From: Myxococcota bacterium
Lineage (GTDB): Bacteria; Myxococcota_A; Polyangia; Polyangiales; Houyiibacteriaceae
NCBI GenBank assembly: GCA_039030515.1
Contig: JBCCEA010000001.1
Location: forward strand, 64,001-128,000
DNA length: 64,000 nucleotides
Direction: 5' to 3'
In this document: one piece after another, positions 11,063 through 21,136 of the stretch
Layout of the letters: each line of letters begins with the position of its first letter
How positions within the stretch are numbered: position 1 is the stretch's first letter
Made by a program: the position numbers and the translations under genes
Notes under the pieces: generated by a model
What the model was told of the DNA's origin: nothing
Databases searched by the model: none
What the model saw: the letters and a program-made list of their open reading frames with translations, nothing else

Positions 11063-12409
11063 TCATCTGTTGTTGGGTTCCATCCTGAGTCGTTCGAGGA
11101 ACCGTGTTGAAACAGTTCCCTCTAAGAAAGCTTTCGATGACAGGATACGCTGATGTAGGGGAATATTTGTATGAATTCCCGTCACGATCGTTTCTGAGAG
11201 TGCCCTTTTCATTCGGTCGATGGCCTGTGGGCGATCTCGGCCAAAGCTGATCACCTTGGCAACGAGGGAGTCGTAGTCGCTAGGTACGCGGTATCCTCCG
11301 TAGATCCCGTCGTCCACGCGTATTCCGGGTCCCCCTGGCGGATGGTACTCGGTGATTAGTCCTGGGGAGGGGGCATCGGTCTCCGGATTTTCAGCGTTAA
11401 TTCGGCATTCGATCGCAGCGCCTCGGATCGAAATTTCGTCCTGAGAGAGAGAGAGACCCCTTCCGGAGGCGACTCGGATCTGCTCCAGCACCAGATCGAC
11501 TCCGGTCACCAGTTCGGTGACCGGGTGTTCGACTTGAATGCGGGTATTCATCTCCATGAAGGTGAGATTGCCGCGTTCATCCATGAGGAATTCCACGGTG
11601 CCCGCGGAGACGTAGTCGCTTTCCTTCATGGCTCGACGTAGTGTCGCAGATAGGTCTTGGCGGAGTTCATCACTTACGGCGCCACTGGGGGCCTCTTCGA
11701 GAAGTTTTTGGTGACGTCGCTGAATAGAACATTCCCGCTCTCCGAGGACGAGTGCTTGGTGATGGTCTACGAGCACTTGGAACTCGATATGCTTCGGCTC
11801 TTCGATGAAACGCTCGCAGTAGAGATCGCCTATTGAAAATGCAGCGATCGCTTCTGCCTGTGCCTTTTGGAACGTACGCCTCATCTCACTTGCAGAACGA
11901 ACGATGCTCATCCCGCGTCCACCACCACCGCCCGAAGCCTTGAGCATCACCGGAAATCCAACGGCCTGTGCCTGCTGCACTGCGTCTTCCGTACCTTGAA
12001 GCACATTGGAGCCACGCATCAAGGGCAGTCCAAGGCGTTTTGCCAGGGCGCGTGCCTGCACCTTATCTCCCCACTGCCGCATGTTTTCAGGAGTGGGACC
12101 GATGAACGTGAGTCCGCAAGCAAGGCACACGTCGGCAAAGTCAGGATTCTCAGAAAGAAAACCGTAACCTGGGTGAACTGCGTCGGCACCGGTGATCTCT
12201 GCAGCAGCCATGAGCGCGGGGATATTCAGGTAGCTCTGATGTGCCGGACCGGGGCCGATGCAGACTGCCTCGTCGGCAAGGCGAACATGCATGGCCTGGG
12301 CATCCGGTACGCTATGGACTGCAACGGTCTCCAGCTCTAACTCTCGACAGGCACGCAGGATACGGAGGGCAATTTCCCCCCGATTTGCGATGAGCACCTT
12401 ACGGAACAT
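11063..12409 (-). CDS. accC: Acetyl-CoA carboxylase biotin carboxylase subunit
   Basis: KVLIANRGEIA, HPGYGFLSEN, GGGGRGM, RECSIQRRHQK, EMNTRIQVEHPVTE. Confidence 0.97.
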   Translation of the reverse strand: MFRKVLIANRGEIALRILRACRELELETVAVHSVPDAQAMHVRLADEAVCIGPGPAHQSYLNIPALMAAAEITGADAVHPGYGFLSENPDFADVCLACGLTFIGPTPENMRQWGDKVQARALAKRLGLPLMRGSNVLQGTEDAVQQAQAVGFPVMLKASGGGGGRGMSIVRSASEMRRTFQKAQAEAIAAFSIGDLYCERFIEEPKHIEFQVLVDHHQALVLGERECSIQRRHQKLLEEAPSGAVSDELRQDLSATLRRAMKESDYVSAGTVEFLMDERGNLTFMEMNTRIQVEHPVTELVTGVDLVLEQIRVASGRGLSLSQDEISIRGAAIECRINAENPETDAPSPGLITEYHPPGGPGIRVDDGIYGGYRVPSDYDSLVAKVISFGRDRPQAIDRMKRALSETIVTGIHTNIPLHQRILSSKAFLEGTVSTRFLERLRMEPNNR

Positions 12410-12415
12410 AACGAA

Positions 12416-12859
12416 TCAACCCTGGGGTTTCATTCGAAAGAGCACGTCACCGAACTCGACGGGCTTTCCGTTTTCGACGAGGATCTCCTCGACAATTCCG
12501 GACACCTCAGACTCGATTTCGTTCATCAGCTTCATCGCTTCCACGATGCACAGGATCTGGCCGGACGAGACCTGAGCTCCAAGCTGAACGTAGGGTGGCG
12601 ATCCCGGAGAGGGTGCGCGATAAAAAGTTCCCACAAAGGGTGAGGTCACGTCGATAAGATCCGCTCCAGCGGGCGAACCCATCGGTTCCGCTGCGACGGG
12701 CAGTTGCGATTGAGTCGCTGCAGAAGTCGAAAAAGGTGCAGTTAGGCTGTTTCGACGTAGCAAGATGCGTTCATCGCCGCTCTCGATTTCCACTTCAGCG
12801 ATGTCGTGATCTTCGATGGCGCGCATCAGCGCACGGAGCTGATCGAGATCGATCTGCAT
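12416..12859 (-). CDS. accB: Biotin carboxyl carrier protein
   Basis: [11 protein letters not shown] and the EAMKLMNEI biotinylation motif; AGGAG precedes the ATG at 12859. Confidence 0.97.
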
Positions 12860-12896
12860 GGAGTACTCCTCAATGTCCGTGGGTGACGTCCGTCGT

Positions 12897-13415
12897 TCAA
12901 CCAGCCTCAAAACGAGGTCGTTTCAGGTGTACGATGAGCGCCTGTAAGCCGAGGTAATAGCTTTCACGTCCGAAACCGGCAATCGAACCGAGACAGACCG
13001 CGGCGGTATAGGAGCGGTTTCGAAACGACTCTCGGCCATCGATATTGGAGAGATGAACTTCGACGCAGGGAATCGCGATCGCCTTGATCGCATCTCGCAG
13101 TGCGATCGAGCTATGCGTCAGGGCTGCAGGATTGATGACAACGCCCGCGGCGGTCTCTCGAGCTTCATGCAGCCAGTCGACGATCACTCCCTCGTGATTT
13201 GATTGCCGACACTCGACATCGCAACCCATGTCGGCACCGTAGCGGCGAAGGTCTGTGTCCAGCTCCTCAAGCGACCCGTCGCCGTAGATCTCCGGTTCTC
13301 GTGTCCCAAGCAGGTTCAGGTTGGGGCCGTGAAGTATGAAAACCGTAAGCGATGGCCTCGACCCGTCGATCGCTTCGTCGGTAGCGCGACCTACACTCAG
13401 CGTTTTGCCACTCAC
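12897..13415 (-). CDS. aroQ: Type II 3-dehydroquinate dehydratase
   Basis: [38 protein letters not shown]. Confidence 0.97.
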
Positions 13416-13503
13416 GCTTCAGCCCTACACGCCGCGCACCTTGCGTGCCACCTCGGAGGCCAGAAATCGCGAGCCTTTCTTCCGGCCAGTCCCTCCGTCG
13501 TGT

Positions 13504-13866
13504 CTAGACCAGCGCTTCGGAAAGCCGGCTGCTCTGACGACGTAGCAGATAGCGTGCCTTGCCGAAGTTGCCGGTCGGGTGGAGGGTGAGCGCTACGAAA
13601 TGCTCCTCGGTAAGCACGCGGATGATCGTGGTAAGCCGCTCGGCCCGAATAGCGATCTCGCTTGCCCCGCCGACTTCCAACATTTCTGCAGCGCTGCGAA
13701 CTTGGTTCAAAACCACACTGAACTCGGCCCCTACCGCTTCCACGTCTGGCGTTTGCTCCGATCCGCGCACGTAGTGTTCGAGAGGGATACCGTCGCTGTC
13801 CATGATGACGCTTGCAATGCTGCCTTCGGCTTGGTCGACGACCTCTTTTAAAATCTCCTTGAACAT
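13504..13866 (-). CDS. mglC: Roadblock/LC7 protein, MglC-like
   Basis: 120 aa with IMDSDGIP and GNFGKARYLLR; context with accBC and the SgmX-like gene. Confidence 0.75.
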   Translation of the reverse strand: MFKEILKEVVDQAEGSIASVIMDSDGIPLEHYVRGSEQTPDVEAVGAEFSVVLNQVRSAAEMLEVGGASEIAIRAERLTTIIRVLTEEHFVALTLHPTGNFGKARYLLRRQSSRLSEALV

Positions 13867-13925: not shown

Positions 13926-14975
13926 TCAAGTAGTTCTACTTTGGATCGCCTCGGTGATCGTTTCCCGCCACGCGGAGACGAACCGTTTCATCGAAAAATC
14001 GATCCGCGCCCGCGCTCTTGCGGCTTGGCCCATGCGCGTCGCGAGCTCTCGGTCTGCGAGCAACCTGCGAGCCGCCAGGCGTAGTTCGTCGGCTGTGTCG
14101 CATACAAAGCCCTCCACGCCTTGGGTGATGGGGCAGCTTGGATGCGTTGCGGTGACGATGGGCATGCCCGTAGCCATCGCCTCCAGCATCGCAAGGTTGT
14201 AGCCGTCCTCTAAGGGTGCGGCCGCGGTGTGCACGTAGAAACGGTGCTTGCGATAGTACGCTTTGAGGGTTTGCCAGCATGATGCAGGTTCGACGCCCGC
14301 GAAATCTGGATTGACTCCGACCAGTCTGACGTTTGGCCGATCGCTGCCTGCGTTTGGCTCTTCGTTCGTTGCGGTTTGAAACGCTGCTTCGTGCAGTGGC
14401 CATCTCAAGTATTCGGTCTTGAGGGTGATATGGTTGGCGACCCGCAGCCCAAGGTCGAGTGCGCCGTCGTAACCGCAGTACTCCTCGCAATCGACCGCGC
14501 CCTGAATCACCTTTGCGCGGTCGAGAGCCCACGTGTTCTGCTTCATCGGAGAGATAACGACGGGTAGCGCCTGAACAGCTTTCAAATATTTGTCGACAAG
14601 AGTTCTGATTTCCGCGCCGCTTTCGCCTCTTTGCTCTTGTTTGAGTCGCCCCTGCAGCGAGCTGTGAAAGGTGAGTATTTTGGCTCCGGCCATGCCGCGG
14701 CAGGCGAGTAAGTCGGTAAGGTTGTGGGCGATGATGCAGTCGTACCGACGACCTCTCGCCTCCTGCATCGTGCAGAGCCGAACGTTTGCGGGCAGTGGCC
14801 GCATCCGCTCGTCCCAGTTTCGATGGTGGTGACCCGCCAGCTCAACGACGACATCCATGGGCATGCCCAGTCGAGCCAGATCAAAGCAGTAGGCTTCATG
14901 GGAGTTGAATGTCAAAAGACGGATCACAGCTTGAGCCTCGATTCTAATCGATTTGTGCCGGGCCTCTTGAACCAA
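13926..14975 (-). CDS. Glycosyltransferase, family 4 (GT-B)
   Basis: EDGYNLAMLEAMATGMPIV motif and C-terminal MGQAARARARIDFSM. Confidence 0.85.
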   Translation of the reverse strand: MVQEARHKSIRIEAQAVIRLLTFNSHEAYCFDLARLGMPMDVVVELAGHHHRNWDERMRPLPANVRLCTMQEARGRRYDCIIAHNLTDLLACRGMAGAKILTFHSSLQGRLKQEQRGESGAEIRTLVDKYLKAVQALPVVISPMKQNTWALDRAKVIQGAVDCEEYCGYDGALDLGLRVANHITLKTEYLRWPLHEAAFQTATNEEPNAGSDRPNVRLVGVNPDFAGVEPASCWQTLKAYYRKHRFYVHTAAAPLEDGYNLAMLEAMATGMPIVTATHPSCPITQGVEGFVCDTADELRLAARRLLADRELATRMGQAARARARIDFSMKRFVSAWRETITEAIQSRTT

Positions 14976-15018
14976 ACCTATCGACCCAGAGGTTCCCCTT
15001 GATTTCCACAGTGTCTAC

Positions 15019-15046
15019 TTGACAAGCACGCGGCGCAGATTACAAG
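15019..15046 (+). promoter_or_regulatory. Putative sigma70 promoter of the tRNA
   Basis: TTGACA, 16-nt spacer, TACAAG, 14 nt before the tRNA; the -10 is weak. Confidence 0.4.
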
Positions 15047-15060
15047 CGAGGTCCCCACCA

Positions 15061-15144
15061 GCGGAAGTGGCGGAATTGGCAGACGCGCTAGACTAAGGAT
15101 CTAGTGGGGTAATACCCGTGGAGGTTCGAGTCCTCTCTTCCGCA
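15061..15144 (+). tRNA. tRNA-Leu, anticodon AAG
   Basis: Acceptor GCGGAAG/CTTCCGC with discriminator A; D loop AATTGGCAGA; anticodon arm CTAGA-CTAAGGA-TCTAG; long variable arm; T arm GGAGG-TTCGAGT-CCTCT. CCA is not fully encoded. Confidence 0.95.
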
Positions 15145-15213
15145 CCCGTGCTGAAATCGGCTCGCTCCGAAAGCCGCCCTGGCAGACGTGAGCTAGGCGC
15201 CACCAAATGCGAG

Positions 15214-15672
15214 TTAGGCGCTACCGGGCAGCACGCTAAGGACGCGAGAGATTCGCCAAAGCACGGGTAGATTCCTCACCCCACCATACACCCGCAACTC
15301 GCCCCGCCACACAGCGCGTAGCGCATCGCGAGCGTTGGGTCCGAAGGGATTGGGAATGCCCCGGGTGAGAACTTCGATCTGACTGAGACGAACGATCATC
15401 TCGCTGCTCGTCCGAATCGTGATGTCGGGAATGCCGCAAATCCCGTGATGCACGACCAGGCGTCCGAGTTTGAACTGCAGGGTAACCGCAAGGTCCAAGT
15501 CTTCCGCTACGATGGCGACCCGGCCAAGCAACCGAGCGAAGACCGCTCGGCGCGCCGGATCATCCGCTAGGTTTTGACCGATGAGCTCGGCAAGCATAGA
15601 GACGAGACCGTTTTCGGTTCCCCCAGGGGCCATCTCAATTTCTTGAGAGCTGTCGGTTCGAGACGAAGTCAT
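15214..15672 (-). CDS. SCP2-like (sterol carrier fold) hypothetical protein
   Basis: VTLQFKLGRLVVHHG...PDITIRT...GELRVYG resembles the SCP2 fold; adjacent to a clearer SCP2 gene. Confidence 0.55.
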   Translation of the reverse strand: MTSSRTDSSQEIEMAPGGTENGLVSMLAELIGQNLADDPARRAVFARLLGRVAIVAEDLDLAVTLQFKLGRLVVHHGICGIPDITIRTSSEMIVRLSQIEVLTRGIPNPFGPNARDALRAVWRGELRVYGGVRNLPVLWRISRVLSVLPGSA

Positions 15673-15707
15673 CCGGTATTCTTGCCTTCAGCCCTCGACA
15701 CAACCAA

Positions 15708-16136
15708 CTACAAATACTCGGTGTCTACCTTTTTGGCACTTGCCACCAATGCTCGCGACGACTCCACAAACCGAATCATGGTAGGCAGGTGGCCTTTGGT
15801 CAGCCTCAGCTTTCCTTCCATCATCCCCTTGATGGGATCGAGCGAGCCCTCGATGACTTCCTTCCATCGATGGTAGCTGGCTTTGATCACAAAAGAGGTT
15901 GGGCTTTCGTCGATCGCTTGTTCTCCTTTGATCAATGTCGCGTTGCGGCAAACCCCCTCGTGGACATCGAGCACCATGGCCATCGGCTGCTCAATTCCCA
16001 AGGCGGCATCGGCTTCAACCACCATGGCGACCGCTCCGAACGTCCACGGCTTGCCGTGGGTGCGGTAGGCTTCATTTTGGTTCACCGCATCTTTGAACGC
16101 GGCGGTCCATCCTTCAGAAGGAAAACGATGACTCAT
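15708..16136 (-). CDS. SCP2 sterol/lipid-binding domain protein
   Basis: FPSEGWTAAFKDAVN...WKEVIEGSLDPIKGMMEGKLRLTKG. Confidence 0.85.
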   Translation of the reverse strand: MSHRFPSEGWTAAFKDAVNQNEAYRTHGKPWTFGAVAMVVEADAALGIEQPMAMVLDVHEGVCRNATLIKGEQAIDESPTSFVIKASYHRWKEVIEGSLDPIKGMMEGKLRLTKGHLPTMIRFVESSRALVASAKKVDTEYL

Positions 16137-16255
16137 AACGGCTCGGTGTAGCAGGGCTGGTCTGCACGTCCATGTCGGTTGGCGCTTCTCTAAAAGCCCC
16201 AAGAAATCAGAGCTGGCGTTCCAGCAATCGATTCTCAGGGCTCAAGACGTCTATC

Positions 16256-17635
16256 CTAGAGGGCAGCGATGCGGACAGGAGGAAGTCCTGTCGAGCTGGC
16301 TACCGTTACGGCATCGAGCTCCTGCAGGGTGGTCTCTCCGTCGGTGCTGACGACAAATCGATGGATCTCATCCGCGCCCGAGTTGGGCACCAGTAACAAT
16401 CCTGAGGAAGTTCCATAGGCGCCCTGACCGAGTACGAAGGAGCCGTCCGCTACGATCAATACCTCTTGGCTTCCGGTTTCAAGCTCTGTGAGCACCAGAC
16501 GATCGGTGACGTCGTCGCCATTGCCCAGCGCCACACCGACTGCAAGACCGTCACCAAGGGAGGTAACCGTCCAAGTCGCAAGGAGGGACGATGTGTCGTC
16601 CGCGTTTTCAAAGCGGGCTACTTCCTCGAGTTCGCCAGAGCCGTTCAAACGAAGTTGAACTAGACCCGAGGTTGCCCGTACCCCTTCTTCGTCGAAGAAG
16701 GATACGTTGGAATATCCCTTACAGGCGACGAGGACTTCTCTTTCGGTTCCGGGTACGCGGGTCACTTGACCACAGTTGGCAAGGCCTCCCAGCGGAACAC
16801 CGGTGACGGTCTCACTGTTCAGGTCGACCACCGCGGTTATGCCGTCGCCGTGTCCTCGAGGGCCGGAGAAGTCGCTCGACAATCGGTCGAGGCCTACGAT
16901 GAGGTAGTCCCCGATCCGAACGATCCGGCTCGGGCGGCTGACCACTGACACATCAACCTCAGTCCGCTCGCCCCCCTCGCTTTGCTCTAGTCCGGTGACC
17001 ACCTCGTTGAAGTCGCTGAGATCGACCCGATCGCCGTTGAGCGTCATCGTGGTCGGATCGAATCCGAGTAGGTCCGTACCCTGGTCGATTTCCGGTGCAT
17101 CCGGATCAAGGCTGCCGGAGTAGCGTGACGCAAACGCGCTCGTATCGCTGACAATGACGTAGTCATGAGGGTTCGATCTGAACCCCACCTTACCGTCTGG
17201 GTTTCCGCTCAAGCGAACCTGGCCGACGAGGTCTCCCTCGGGCTGGCAGAAGAGACTGACCGCGTCGGTACCGAATCGGTCGATCACGCCAAAGGTTCCC
17301 GCGTATTGCGCAGAGGGAAAAACCACGTCTCCCGAGAGCGCAGCCACCAAGCCGGGGCGGGTAACGCCCGAGTTGTGCCAGCTCTCGGCGAGGACCTCTG
17401 CCTCTGCTCCCAGAAGAGAGACGGCGGTGCTCGAGAAGTCCGTCGAGATCACGGCAAAGCTCGGGATTTCGGACAAACTAGAGAGTCCCGACTCTCCGCT
17501 AGGGCAAAGCCCGCTTTGCACGTTGGGATCTTCTAAAGAGGTGCCGTTCGAGTCGTCGTCGCAGCCGACGGTTAAAGAAGTTAGTGAAAATGCAATAAGA
17601 AAGCGGCCGAGGTTTTCGGCAATCCGAGTGTTCAT
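16256..17635 (-). CDS. Acidic lipoprotein, probable beta-propeller, partner of the TonB receptor
   Basis: Lipobox LTVG-C followed by DDDS; repeated beta-strand motifs; TAATG overlap with the receptor stop. Confidence 0.75.
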   Translation of the reverse strand: MNTRIAENLGRFLIAFSLTSLTVGCDDDSNGTSLEDPNVQSGLCPSGESGLSSLSEIPSFAVISTDFSSTAVSLLGAEAEVLAESWHNSGVTRPGLVAALSGDVVFPSAQYAGTFGVIDRFGTDAVSLFCQPEGDLVGQVRLSGNPDGKVGFRSNPHDYVIVSDTSAFASRYSGSLDPDAPEIDQGTDLLGFDPTTMTLNGDRVDLSDFNEVVTGLEQSEGGERTEVDVSVVSRPSRIVRIGDYLIVGLDRLSSDFSGPRGHGDGITAVVDLNSETVTGVPLGGLANCGQVTRVPGTEREVLVACKGYSNVSFFDEEGVRATSGLVQLRLNGSGELEEVARFENADDTSSLLATWTVTSLGDGLAVGVALGNGDDVTDRLVLTELETGSQEVLIVADGSFVLGQGAYGTSSGLLLVPNSGADEIHRFVVSTDGETTLQELDAVTVASSTGLPPVRIAAL

Positions 17636-19857
17636 TATAGTTCCTTTCGATATTGAACGGTGAGTGCAAAGCGCCGGCCCGGTAGTGGATAGCCGACGAA
17701 GTCTTGGCCACGGGTGTCTCTCAGGTCCCTTGCTGCCCCAAGGAAGGAAACCCCGCAGTTGAAGCGCAGCGCTGCGCTTAGGTCGAGCCAGGTTGCCGCT
17801 GCGACCTCTACGAAATTTGCTGGATCATTGTAATAAGAGCCGCGATATCGCATGTGAAGCGTAATTGAGAGATTCTCCACGGCACCCAGAGCTCCGCTGT
17901 GATAGGTCGCTTGGGCTTGGGCGACCTGTCTAGGCCTCCACACCAGATCGCGCGCCCCGTCCCCAGTGGCGCGCATCAAGGTCGCGCTTCCGTTGACGCT
18001 TACCCGCTCCAGAAGGTGTTTTGCTGTATGTAGTGTGCCGGAAAAGCCCGCCTCGACGCCCAGGGTCTCCGCGTGGTTGAGGTTTTCGGCTTTTGCGGTT
18101 CCACGTGAGTTTTGCCGGTATTGGATCAGGTTGCGAAGGTCACTGTGGAAACCACGCACCTCTCCTTGAATCTCTAGAAGTGACCCTCTCTTCCGAAACA
18201 CTGCCCCAAAATCCAAGTTTCGTCCCCGCTCGGGGTTGAGATCGGTGTTTGCTTCGAGTGCACCGCGATCGCCAAAGAGCTCCAGCACCGAGGGTGTGCG
18301 CACTCCGGTCGAAATTGAGGCGACGAGGCTGAGGAACGGAAGAGGCGTTGCGGTTGCGCCCAGGCGGTAGACCGGTTCGATCAGGGTGTCGCTCCGAGAG
18401 GTTTGCGTGCCGAGTAGCTCTCCCTGAATTCGGGCTCGGGTACCGTAGACCTGGATACTGGGTCGCAGAGTCCAATAGGTACGAAGCGCTTCTCCATGAA
18501 GGTTGAATTCAACAGCGCCTCGCATGGTCGCTCGATCCGAATCTTGCTGCGGGGTGCCGAGTGCGTTGTCCGGCAGATATCGATCGCGCCGTACTGCGAG
18601 GAGCGTGGTGATCTCGAGATACTCGGCGACCGAAAGCTCCAAGGAAGAGCGTAGATGCATCGCGCTGATCCGATCGTCTGAAATTTCGCGACCCAAGCCA
18701 ATTTCACCAAAGCGATCGATGAACTGGCGGCGCTGATGGCCTCCTCCCCACAACAGCCCAACGCGGTGTCCTCGTCCAAAAGGCTGAATCAAAGAAGCGC
18801 TGCCGATTCCCTGTGTCTCGTTTCGGCGAGAGTGGCGGGCGTAGATCGCGGAGGGTCCGGGCGCACCACCTTGCCTTGAGAGTGCAAGGAGCGCGATCTC
18901 CAAAGTCCCTCCAGACTCGAGTTCGCTGCGGCTGTGAAACAGCCCGTGACCGCCGAGCACCTGTGCGTTTTGTCGCCTGCGACTCTCGTCGTCGCTCGGG
19001 TCGAAGACCGTGCCGTTGTCGTAGTGGATCGGGTAGTCATTTTGGCTGCCGTAGGCACCGACCGAGCTCACCACCATGGTGCGGTTGCTCCAGACCACCG
19101 CAGATGCCGACGATCGGTGGGTACCAAAACTCCCCCAGCCCGTTTCGAGCATCAGGTAGTCCCGATAGTCTCGCCGCGGCTTGAGCCGCACCACGCCTCC
19201 GATAGACGGTGAGAGAAGCCAAGCTGGCGCTCCTCCCCGGAATACCTCGAGCGATTCGAACGCCTCCAGCGGAAGCAAGCTGAGGTCCAACGGGCCGGTG
19301 TCTGGTCCGGTGAGCGGAAGGTCTCCCAGCATGTACACGGTATGGCCAAACTGCGCTCCTCGGAGCGCAAGTCTTGAACCACTGCCCATGCCTCCCACCG
19401 CGACCACATGGGATCCTGGGGTCTGGCGTAGGACCTCGGAGGTGGTGGCCATCGCGACATCTGTTGCCGCCGGTACTTCTGTGCCCGAGGCGCTCGGGTC
19501 CAGTCCGTGAAGCGCGATCGGGCCCGGGTGGGCGACCGCTCGGGCCTGATACGCAGAGGCGCCTACATCGGTCGAGCCTGGATCGTTCGGATCGGGGTTC
19601 GTGTTCGCTGCGGGCTGTGCCTGTGCGGACTCCTTCGCAGATTCGTTCGATGCGGTTTGCTCCGTTGGGGTTTGAGCAAGGCTCCTCTGTGCCTGCACCG
19701 CGGGATGCAGCAGCGACCAACCGAGCAACACCCCAAAGGTTCCGGCCCCAGGAAAGACACGCTGGTGACGATGCACGCTCCAGCCCCGAGACGGTACGGC
19801 CGCGAATGATGCGACGCGCTCGGAGAGATACGTGGGATGGGGCGGGGTTGGCTTCAT
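17635..19857 (-). CDS. btuB: TonB-dependent receptor, BtuB-like corrinoid transporter
   Basis: Plug motifs (LRQTPG, LALRG, LEVFRGG), barrel motif NTDLNPERG, C-terminal YPLPGRRF; lies downstream of a cobalamin riboswitch. Start uncertain. Confidence 0.85.
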   Translation of the reverse strand: MKPTPPHPTYLSERVASFAAVPSRGWSVHRHQRVFPGAGTFGVLLGWSLLHPAVQAQRSLAQTPTEQTASNESAKESAQAQPAANTNPDPNDPGSTDVGASAYQARAVAHPGPIALHGLDPSASGTEVPAATDVAMATTSEVLRQTPGSHVVAVGGMGSGSRLALRGAQFGHTVYMLGDLPLTGPDTGPLDLSLLPLEAFESLEVFRGGAPAWLLSPSIGGVVRLKPRRDYRDYLMLETGWGSFGTHRSSASAVVWSNRTMVVSSVGAYGSQNDYPIHYDNGTVFDPSDDESRRRQNAQVLGGHGLFHSRSELESGGTLEIALLALSRQGGAPGPSAIYARHSRRNETQGIGSASLIQPFGRGHRVGLLWGGGHQRRQFIDRFGEIGLGREISDDRISAMHLRSSLELSVAEYLEITTLLAVRRDRYLPDNALGTPQQDSDRATMRGAVEFNLHGEALRTYWTLRPSIQVYGTRARIQGELLGTQTSRSDTLIEPVYRLGATATPLPFLSLVASISTGVRTPSVLELFGDRGALEANTDLNPERGRNLDFGAVFRKRGSLLEIQGEVRGFHSDLRNLIQYRQNSRGTAKAENLNHAETLGVEAGFSGTLHTAKHLLERVSVNGSATLMRATGDGARDLVWRPRQVAQAQATYHSGALGAVENLSITLHMRYRGSYYNDPANFVEVAAATWLDLSAALRFNCGVSFLGAARDLRDTRGQDFVGYPLPGRRFALTVQYRKEL

Positions 19858-20040
19858 CGTGGCAGAGGGCCACCCCGGGAACGGTATCGGACAAGCAAAC
19901 CAGCGCTCAGGCACCGGAGATGCGATGGTCGCTTTAGGCAACTCAACCGAGAGGTTCAACGCTCCCGCTGCCTTCCGATGACCGCATCGGCTCGTCTTCA
20001 ACCGCCATCCCCGAGGCGAGGTCAAAGTGCACCTAATTTG

Positions 20041-20234
20041 AGCAGGTCTCCGGACTGACGGCCGTGAACCAGGTGGCCTTCCCAACGAGCCCTCCGGCTT
20101 GGGGGATTCCCATCCGAAAGCGTCTCGTCAGTGGCATGATCACCCGGGCGTAGACCGAACACCGTGGCGGGTCCGCGTCGGAATCGCACCGACTTCCCTC
20201 TTGGAACTGCCGGTTTTCTCTCCGGATTCCTGCT
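20041..20234 (-). ncRNA. Cobalamin (B12) riboswitch
   Basis: Minus strand: AGCAGG...AAGAGGGAAGTCGGTGCGATTCCGACGCGGACCCGCCACGGT...GCCACTG...GGGAAGGC...AGTCCGGAGACCTGCT (B12 box; P1 AGCAGG/CCTGCT). Confidence 0.95.
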
Positions 20235-20377
20235 GATTGCAAAAAGCAACCAACCCAAAAGGCACACCACACTGCGATCCTCGCAGGCGGAAGTCAACTC
20301 GGTTTGCGGTCTCGGATGTCGCTCGATGAAGCCTGGGTGAGAGCGACGCTAGGCCACGATCGAGTGCGCCCTCAGAG

Positions 20378-21136
20378 ATGACGGTCTATGACTCTTCGAT
20401 GCGCCCCACCGTCGAGCTTCGTCGTCGCGCCTGCGTGGTGCGCTTCCCCAAGCCCCAACGCATGCTGAGCTGGGCTGTGCTTCAAGGGGGTATGGTGGTT
20501 TCCGATACCGTGGCGTGGCTCGAAGTTCGAGGAGAAGAGCTTCCTGCCGATGTGAAACCAGAGTGGGTGGCTGAGCAACGTCTCAAGGAAGAGGCTCTAG
20601 TGGATGCAGTCACCCTGATGACGAGCCGTCGTATCGATACGCTGCAGGAGACTTGGTCGGGAATCGACGAGGTTCATGTGAGGTGCTGGTCGACGACGGG
20701 TTTGTCCAATGCCGTTCATATTCGCGGTGCTCTCGGTGCTCAAGGGGATCACGCGAATCGAGCTGCCTCGAGGTTCGGGACGATCAACGCGCTCTGCCAA
20801 GTGGACGTGCCTCTTTCGTTTCCTGCGAGCATGGAAGCGCTTTCCCTAGTTGCTGAGGCTCGAACGGCCGCGGTGATCGAGGCCTGCGCTGCGCTTCCTG
20901 AGCGGCCTGCATGGACCGGGACCGGGACCGACTGCATCGTCGTCGCTTCACCCATCGACGAACAGGTACCTCATGCCTACGCGGGCAAGCACACCAAGCT
21001 AGGCCAGGCGATCGGTCAGGCTGCGTTCGATTCGTTTTCTGCCGGGATTGCGGCTTGGCTTGAGGAAGTGCGGCAGTGCACCGAATCCCACGCGCACTCT
21101 CGGTGTTTTGGCGCCGTGGGCGCAGAGGAAGATTGA
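20378..21136 (+). CDS. cbiZ: Adenosylcobinamide amidohydrolase
   Basis: LSWAVLQGG, TTGLSNA, GTIN, EARTAA, TGTGTDC, YAGKHT. Confidence 0.88.
   Translation: MTVYDSSMRPTVELRRRACVVRFPKPQRMLSWAVLQGGMVVSDTVAWLEVRGEELPADVKPEWVAEQRLKEEALVDAVTLMTSRRIDTLQETWSGIDEVHVRCWSTTGLSNAVHIRGALGAQGDHANRAASRFGTINALCQVDVPLSFPASMEALSLVAEARTAAVIEACAALPERPAWTGTGTDCIVVASPIDEQVPHAYAGKHTKLGQAIGQAAFDSFSAGIAAWLEEVRQCTESHAHSRCFGAVGAEED

Follow-up and report, generated by a model that had tools for sequence, protein, structure and literature searches.

The 64-kb window analysed here (the whole stretch of DNA, 64,000 nucleotides) contains a sole tRNA gene, an intact tRNA-Leu with the genomic anticodon AAG (Table 1), which probably provides the housekeeping tRNA for the CUY codons in place of Leu(GAG), its A34 being edited to inosine by a single ordinary TadA. 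In this mechanistic scenario, A34 would be converted to inosine by the one TadA of the source genome, termed G000, and the resulting IAG anticodon would read CUC and CUU and, in lineages where Leu(UAG) is missing, also CUA. Expression of the gene, leucine charging, TadA editing and the decoding range are steps which we infer from the gene sequences.

Table 1. The tRNA-Leu(AAG) gene and its surroundings in the window.
Feature	Position	Strand	Basis
tRNA-Leu(AAG), class II body, variable arm 15105-15119, A73 at 15144	15061..15144	+	sequence, ARAGORN, Rfam
Anticodon AAG, A34 = 15095, predicted inosine	15095..15097	+	sequence; X1 and X2 contigs agree
Anticodon loop C32-U33-A34-A35-G36-G37-A38 (C T AAG G A); fits S. 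pyogenes TadA consensus YUAMGRA	15093..15099	+	
5-bp anticodon stem CTAGA (15088-92)/TCTAG (15100-04), closing pair A31-U39	15088..15104	+	
TTGACA, perfect -35-like, upstream of Leu(AAG); promoter putative	15019..15024	+	
GT4-type glycosyltransferase gene, divergent upstream neighbour	13926..14975	-	
Roadblock/LC7 - aroQ (type II dehydroquinase) - accB - accC; conserved marker of the clade's AAG locus	11063..13866	-	
Two small ORFs downstream, convergent on the tRNA, in the conserved locus; first SCP2-like, 15214-15672	15214..16202	-	

The anticodon arm is exactly as the initial annotation had read it (AAG, perfect CTAGA/TCTAG stem, U33 at 15094, G37), and the cloverleaf is likewise intact: ARAGORN calls tRNA-Leu(aag) at 15061-15146, and Rfam RF00005 matches with 55.2 bits (cut-off 29, E 3.7e-9), all four stems being paired in the alignment and followed by the long variable arm. 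A Leu-type body with long variable arm and A73, combined with a genomic anticodon AAG, is one of the traits that mark bacterial tRNA-Leu(IAG). CCA is not encoded, and CCC comes next after A73. MFE folding did not return the cloverleaf (z -1.5); since such folds carry no information on a tRNA with modifications, the structure was taken from Rfam and ARAGORN. The A31-U39 closure recurs in the Leu(CAG) and Leu(TAG) genes of G000, and the GAG genes of the order mostly have C31-G39. The upstream TTGACA pointed out in the initial annotation is present, but the promoter scan gave no full sigma-70 site in 14950-15260, the best -10 nearby being a weak TACAAG (15041-46), and the combined promoter/terminator scan around the gene returned nothing. 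Elsewhere in the window, a cobalamin riboswitch (20024-20259, - strand, Rfam 83 bits) lies ahead of a TonB-dependent receptor gene (17635-20085, -), and a CbiZ-family gene (20378-21136, +) is arranged divergently from both, as is usual in a locus for the uptake and salvage of B12.

The A at 15095 is no assembly slip. A 7.2-kb contig of run X1 (possibly the source sample) shows no difference over 14600-15132 and a contig of run X2 none over 14900-15096, although 15095 sits there at the contig end; both are assembled contigs and not raw reads, and all four DNA runs come from one study. One might still regard the gene as an artefact, a pseudogene or a mobile accessory tRNA and Leu(GAG) as just missing from the bin, in keeping with a bin completeness of 85% and the lack of a complete sigma-70 promoter. 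We attach practically no credence to this reading: both contigs have the same base, 117 genomes of the order share the anticodon, 22 of 27 AAG loci of relatives share neighbours with the window (roadblock-aroQ-accB, SCP2-like), and the single-contig genomes G077, G071, G072 and G229 possess AAG and lack GAG, a conservation by which it is refuted. The relatives have kept this AAG loop. The gene is real, conserved, and stands in for Leu(GAG).

G000 is a genome of 4.08 Mb and 57% GC from a marine metagenome and is 85% complete. Its leucine set consists of AAG, TAG, CAG, TAA and CAA. The initial annotation had asked for a missing isoacceptor and for further A34 tRNAs: Leu(GAG) is indeed missing from this 85%-complete genome, and apart from Leu(AAG) an A34 occurs just in Arg(ACG), none being found for Thr, Ala, Pro, Val, Ile or Ser. 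Because of the incompleteness and because tRNAs for Phe, Ile and Ala(TGC) are absent as well, the missing GAG in G000 alone proves nothing. Leu(TAG), which the initial annotation had likewise asked about, is retained, and G000 consequently does not need its AAG tRNA to read CUA. Lowering the ARAGORN threshold yielded mainly noise on this genome. An Arg(TCG) gene is found alongside Arg(ACG), and CGA reading is therefore independent of inosine there.

The replacement becomes evident at the level of the order. A pattern reading both AAG and GAG genes matched 203 of 218 order genomes (hand tally), 117 of them with AAG and 86 with GAG. The analysis as a whole leaves aside G143 and non-tRNA pattern matches in G057, G265, G315, G061 and G011. 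AAG is thus the CUY reader in more than half of the matched genomes of the order and not a one-lineage oddity. Outside the order, it occurs in 19 of 117 matched genomes of the phylum, including all 13 of family f32. AAG and GAG are mutually exclusive, with extra GAG genes in three AAG genomes, all in tRNA arrays; the housekeeping Leu(GAG) is replaced by the AAG gene, as is characteristic of the Lactobacillales-type Leu(IAG).

An expansion of I34 to many codon boxes, as in eukaryotes, was looked for and not found; the A34 tRNAs of G000 are those given above. A further A34 scan matched 44 of 401 order genomes, fewer than its reversed-pattern control, and revealed no further class I housekeeping A34 tRNA in these genomes; among the 30 loci checked, only an array Val(AAC) and one His(ATG) were tRNAs. 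The pattern frame recovered 23 of the 45 tRNA calls of G000, including all for Thr, Pro, Val and Gly; in the relatives it covered boxes other than Ser. The tRNA-His-like gene with anticodon ATG (L467:1483-1557) belongs to G047, a GAG revertant that is 91% complete and gave no TadA match. In L483 (G003), L484 (G011), L485 (G013) and L460 (G014) there are large, likely mobile arrays composed of 9-31 divergent tRNA genes; that of G014 contains a Val(AAC) as well as Leu(TAA/TAG/CAA) genes of only 76 nt that lack the variable arm, and others contain Arg(GCG).

Mapped onto a FastTree RpoB tree (109 genomes with an RpoB match, midpoint root, GAG read as ancestral), the distribution requires eight state changes, about six AAG gains and two reversions. 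G000 falls into a large AAG clade of 50 rows (support 100) to which AAG is ancestral, and the independent gain in this particular lineage assumed in the initial annotation is thereby superseded. The reversions, in genus g42 and in G047, lie inside this clade, and five further gains concern G213, G292, f32 together with f48, G323 and G327. Two cases illustrate switches in place: the GAG gene of g42 has the body and the locus of its AAG relatives and differs by five changes, all in the anticodon arm, and G213 carries AAG on the GAG body of its family with two GAG congeners, corresponding to a within-genus gain. None of eight f16/f17 GAG loci shares the neighbours of the window, and the bodies of the clade's AAG gene and of Leu(CAG) are nearly the same (88% in G000), which suggests an origin of the former from a CAG duplicate or by gene conversion; the comparison took in few loci, each with the surrounding 6-15 kb or 3 kb. 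The AAG gene of G327 (L445:7627-7708), which has rpoB on the same contig, is unlike the GAG genes of its family in body and neighbourhood and was possibly acquired instead of switched in place. Altogether, Leu(AAG) appears to have been repeatedly gained and lost in GC-rich myxobacteria.

The gene is also widespread beyond the phylum. A cross-phylum scan with one genome per species gave at least 120 matches, of which 80 loci were returned, a sample and not a census; ARAGORN called all 80 as Leu(AAG). The matches listed span what we take to be at least about 14 phylum-level groups, including Verrucomicrobiota, Clostridia, Actinomarina, Cloacimonadota, Synergistota and Planctomycetota. The distribution of Leu(AAG) is accordingly much wider than reported.

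A conversion of A34 to inosine is suggested first by the anticodon loops. Y32 and A38 occur in every one of the 136 myxobacterial AAG genes, and A38 is found in none of 184 housekeeping GAG genes (both read by eye). This pattern holds across the eight state changes of the RpoB tree, including the in-place reversion of g42 and the gain in G213. The loop CUAAGGA matches YUAMGRA, the widened consensus of the S. pyogenes TadA, which fully edits its Leu(AAG) (PMC11472039). The E. coli TadA leaves this S. pyogenes tRNA unedited (PMC11472039) and is blocked by changes at 32, 37 or 38 (PMC11066159). The myxobacterial Arg(ACG) loop, CU-ACG-GA in 66 of 73 genomes, is one base (35) away from the Leu loop; in G000 it has A37 and is two bases away.

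Alternatively, A34 might remain unedited or partly edited, C32 and A38 being a matter of ribosome tuning, and wobble over the CUN codons with the help of Leu(UAG) where present. This view is attractive insofar as the identity of 32/38 follows a purine at 34 for decoding reasons and tunes weak A/I34 anticodons for the ribosome (PMC7293025); A38 may reflect ribosome tuning instead of enzyme recognition. Moreover, unedited A34 reads C-ending codons when the first two bases are G/C, CUC modestly (PMC11066159), and AAG loops with G37 are not edited by E. coli TadA (PMC11472039, PMC11066159). Of the four A34 tRNAs of Oenococcus oeni, only two undergo editing (a finding cited in PMC11066159), and A34 therefore does not guarantee I34. 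We nevertheless consider this alternative improbable. Every myxobacterial AAG loop fits the consensus, and the identical loop is the one fully edited in S. pyogenes. CUC is the dominant codon (31% of the Leu codons in G000, reaching 77% in the rpoB genes of AAG relatives), yet an unedited AAG-G37 tRNA in E. coli prefers CUU over CUC by 87:13 (PMC11066159). Finally, lineages without Leu(UAG) still use CUA, the reading of which by an AAG tRNA in E. coli was below detection (PMC11066159). Inosine at position 34, as proposed in the initial annotation, is the most probable explanation; in G000, its CUA reading would be dispensable.

The balance may differ in other phyla. A38 is present in 66 of the 80 Leu(AAG) loci returned by the cross-phylum scan, and in 14 the loop combines U32 with G38 or U38, the stem being closed in most of them by U31-G39 (L065, L068, L072, L079, L085, L087-L089, L093, L098, L100, L107, L121 and L143). 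These misfit the TadA consensus, and unedited AAG tRNAs may accordingly exist. An origin from TadA-less genomes was rejected, as a TadA match was obtained in 13 of these 14 genomes; the genes may represent a second class, either unedited or differently recognised.

The case for CUA reading comes from the apparent loss of Leu(UAG). Among 24 AAG genomes, 10, including two single-contig ones, yielded no Leu(TAG), as opposed to none of 8 GAG genomes, the genomes tested being a non-random set whose last five were chosen as kin of TAG-less ones. The ten comprise all six tested members of family f22 and four of family f1, and an eleventh genome has TAG only in an array; a BLAST check agreed on the absence in five of the ten. 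With Leu(UAG) missing, AAG is left as the only reader of CUU, CUC and CUA, and CUA persists in conserved genes (7 of 581 aligned Leu positions in G011 and 2 of 1032 in G077, both single-contig). In three genomes Leu(TAG) itself has an A38 loop (G071:C1:63175-63224, G097:C54:43962-44011 and G009:C314:16196-16246); the TAG anticodon arm of G071 and G097 equals their own AAG arm except for base 34, which suggests exchange between AAG and TAG genes in these two.

The codon usage of G000 gives no support for an effect of this tRNA. The leucine codons are distributed as CTC.310, CTG.243, CTT.189, TTG.144, CTA.081 and TTA.033. Compared with the remaining four-codon boxes, CUU/CUC is at their U/C ratio (log-odds difference 0.00), while CUA/CUG is lower (log-odds -0.42), and the frequent CTT and CTA codons noticed in the initial annotation reflect the 57% GC of the genome and not the tRNA. 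Between sister lineages, CUU/CUC was higher on the AAG side in rpoB in six of seven contrasts (fragments below 2 kb dropped), but in only three of seven in larger samples from 36 genomes (ORFs by our own heuristic); a codon shift towards CUU with AAG is therefore not claimed.

The enzyme side shows an ordinary equipment. As proposed by the initial annotation, the TadA copies were inspected, and G000 encodes one intact TadA (G000:C38, L043:1294-1857) scoring 155.7 bits against an NCBIfam equivalog cut-off of 150, with H-x-E and PC-xx-C zinc motifs and 2b3j as best PDB match (E 5e-45); the gene adjoins tRNA-Arg(ACG). A second deaminase distinct from the Arg-tRNA TadA might be envisaged as the editor of Leu(AAG), since a few genomes contain weaker TadA-like matches (75-93 bits). 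This appears very improbable: the deaminases of G000 are restricted to one TadA and one RibD-type protein, and the weaker matches, which GAG genomes contain as well as AAG genomes, are missing from most AAG genomes. In the myxobacteria, tadA and tRNA-Arg(ACG) are no more than 1.5 kb apart in 73 of 110 loci, including L211 (= G000:C38), and the four tadA loci listed in full are each located inside a Ser/Arg tRNA cluster. In family f48 (G249 L452:7350-10056; also G272 and G293), Leu(AAG) is found 2-4 kb from tadA and the Ser/Arg(ACG) cluster, so that the enzyme and both A34 substrates are linked.

The H-x-E and C-xx-C motifs are intact in all 110 aligned myxobacterial TadAs. In E. coli TadA, Arg26 and Arg152 were proposed to close the base-35 pocket (PMC10586758). 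At the position equivalent to 26, G000 and 105 other TadAs of the 110 (106 in total) have Gly, none has Arg, and AAG and GAG genomes are alike. The special relaxation of TadA invoked in the initial annotation is thus hardly needed, Arg26 being absent irrespective of the tRNA and the Arg substrate usually already having G37. The switch would accordingly be evolutionarily cheap, because TadA has Gly instead of Arg26 and usually handles an Arg loop with G37; that both traits are common to AAG and GAG genomes fits easy, repeated switching.

A variant within the preferred reading assumes that Leu(AAG) is edited only because TadA gained Ile/Val152 and Ile61 with each switch, the ancestral TadA being unable to do so. 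Position 152, which is Ile in G000, is Ile or Val in 44 of 60 AAG versus 2 of 49 GAG TadAs. Among 149 columns x 38 residue classes, I/V at 152 ranked first and Ile at 61 second over seven sister contrasts (family-wise 4 of 128 sign flips), and an independent-pairs analysis of position 152 gave 5.3 of 7 in the same direction and 0.0 opposite (median p 0.06). Position 152 had also been nominated independently (PMC10586758), and TadA groups with the host clade in G213, G327, G323 and g42, albeit in a short alignment with few strong branches covering genomes with a TadA match; joint transfer of TadA with the tRNA is hence unsupported. On the other hand, there is no TadA residue by which the AAG and the GAG genomes can be fully told apart, and a single diagnostic residue was rejected: GAG genome G517 has Val152, which as a congener of G213 removes one contrast, and AAG genome G090 has Leu152 and Val61. 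AAG genomes without I/V152 further include f48 (R, L, K) and G292 (L), and outside the phylum I/V152 is found in 2 of 18 A38-type AAG genomes, Streptococcus oralis having Arg. The I/V class was, in addition, chosen after the data had been seen, and several of the seven contrasts hinge on one genome. The co-change of TadA at 152 and 61 is thus suggestive, and we judge its being a prerequisite for editing rather unlikely. In three f17 genomes (G188, G207 and G153; L254, L259 and L260), Arg(ACG) has A37, with Arg at position 152 and Asp/Glu at 61. The residues at 152 and 61 may therefore relate to base 37 instead of 35, an idea derived from one clade only, and f53 combines Arg152 with G37.

Based on these data we propose, very tentatively and with somewhat more doubt than confidence, a broader scenario: Leu(IAG) would be a recurrent and reversible solution for the CUN box in many phyla; in myxobacteria, a package of base 34 and 32/38 changed in place would have been opened by a G37-tuned TadA and fixed by Ile/Val152 and Ile61; and Leu(UAG) would have been lost in several GC-rich lineages, in which inosine editing alone would support 60-75% of leucine decoding. 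If this holds true, g42 versus its family and G213 versus its congeners are natural experiments on how the range of TadA widens.

While the mechanism as such is known, the surprise lies in distribution and evolution. Bacterial Leu(AAG) was placed almost wholly in Bacilli/Firmicutes, with Prochlorococcus and Mycoplasma mentioned in passing (PMC13249217, bioRxiv 10.64898/2026.05.15.725136 and PMC8007984). The main texts of bioRxiv 2026.05.15.725136, PMC11472039 and PMC8007984 contain no 'Myxo' terms, and PMC13092985 has a single, off-topic one. We found no paper tying myxobacteria (including Sorangium, Anaeromyxobacter and Deltaproteobacteria) to A34 or Leu(AAG), although earlier surveys and supplements may list them. 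How the strict homodimeric TadA accepted a second tRNA was left open (PMC11472039). For this question, about eight independent switches, in-place reversions, Leu and Arg loops that differ by one base and the apparent repeated loss of Leu(UAG) offer matched tRNA/enzyme pairs. Natural TadAs with a wider range at bases 35 and 37 are also of interest because adenine base editors were developed from TadA.

On every feature that can be tested in DNA, the gene belongs with the Lactobacillales tRNA-Leu(IAG). Common to both are the replacement of Leu(GAG) with mutual exclusion, a single TadA and a YUAMGRA loop; the gene even shares the 11 bases GA-CUAAGGA-UC at the core of its anticodon arm with gene L082 of Streptococcus oralis. 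Leu(AAG) edited to IAG is reportedly also present in Oenococcus oeni. Editing of Leu(AAG) to IAG by TadA was demonstrated in S. pyogenes (PMC11472039) and in S. mutans and S. pneumoniae (PMC13249217), whereas in the myxobacteria it is predicted from the genes. It differs in residing in GC-rich Myxococcota and not in AT-rich Bacillota, with CUC as main codon, and in its repeated gains and reversions inside one phylum. A leucine codon shift is an associated trait in PMC13249217, in contrast to the inconsistent one found here (3/7 contrasts in the wider samples), and the claim that I34-Leu drives codon recoding did not hold in these samples. Several myxobacterial lineages appear to lack Leu(UAG), which Lactobacillales keep according to the same report (PMC13249217).

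With the Arg(ICG)/TadA system of E. coli and S. aureus (PDB 2B3J), the present one shares the enzyme family, A34, U33, G36 and the Y32/A38 frame, and in UAG-less lineages the Leu box, like the Arg box, would be read by I34 and C34 tRNAs; it differs in base 35, A instead of C, and in the Gly26/Ile152 of the G000 TadA (Arg26/Arg152 in E. coli). Leu(AAG) was also noted in Prochlorococcus and Mycoplasma, with editing untested in that paper (PMC13249217). The Prochlorococcus genes recovered here have the same anticodon and C32/A38, but compared to the myxobacterial gene these tRNAs have another body, a U31-G39 or similar closure and an unrelated phylum as host. Eukaryotes likewise use Leu(AAG) in place of Leu(GAG), but with up to eight A34 tRNAs and the heterodimeric ADAT2/3; the myxobacterial switch may serve as a bacterial model for the step which eukaryotes took with ADAT.
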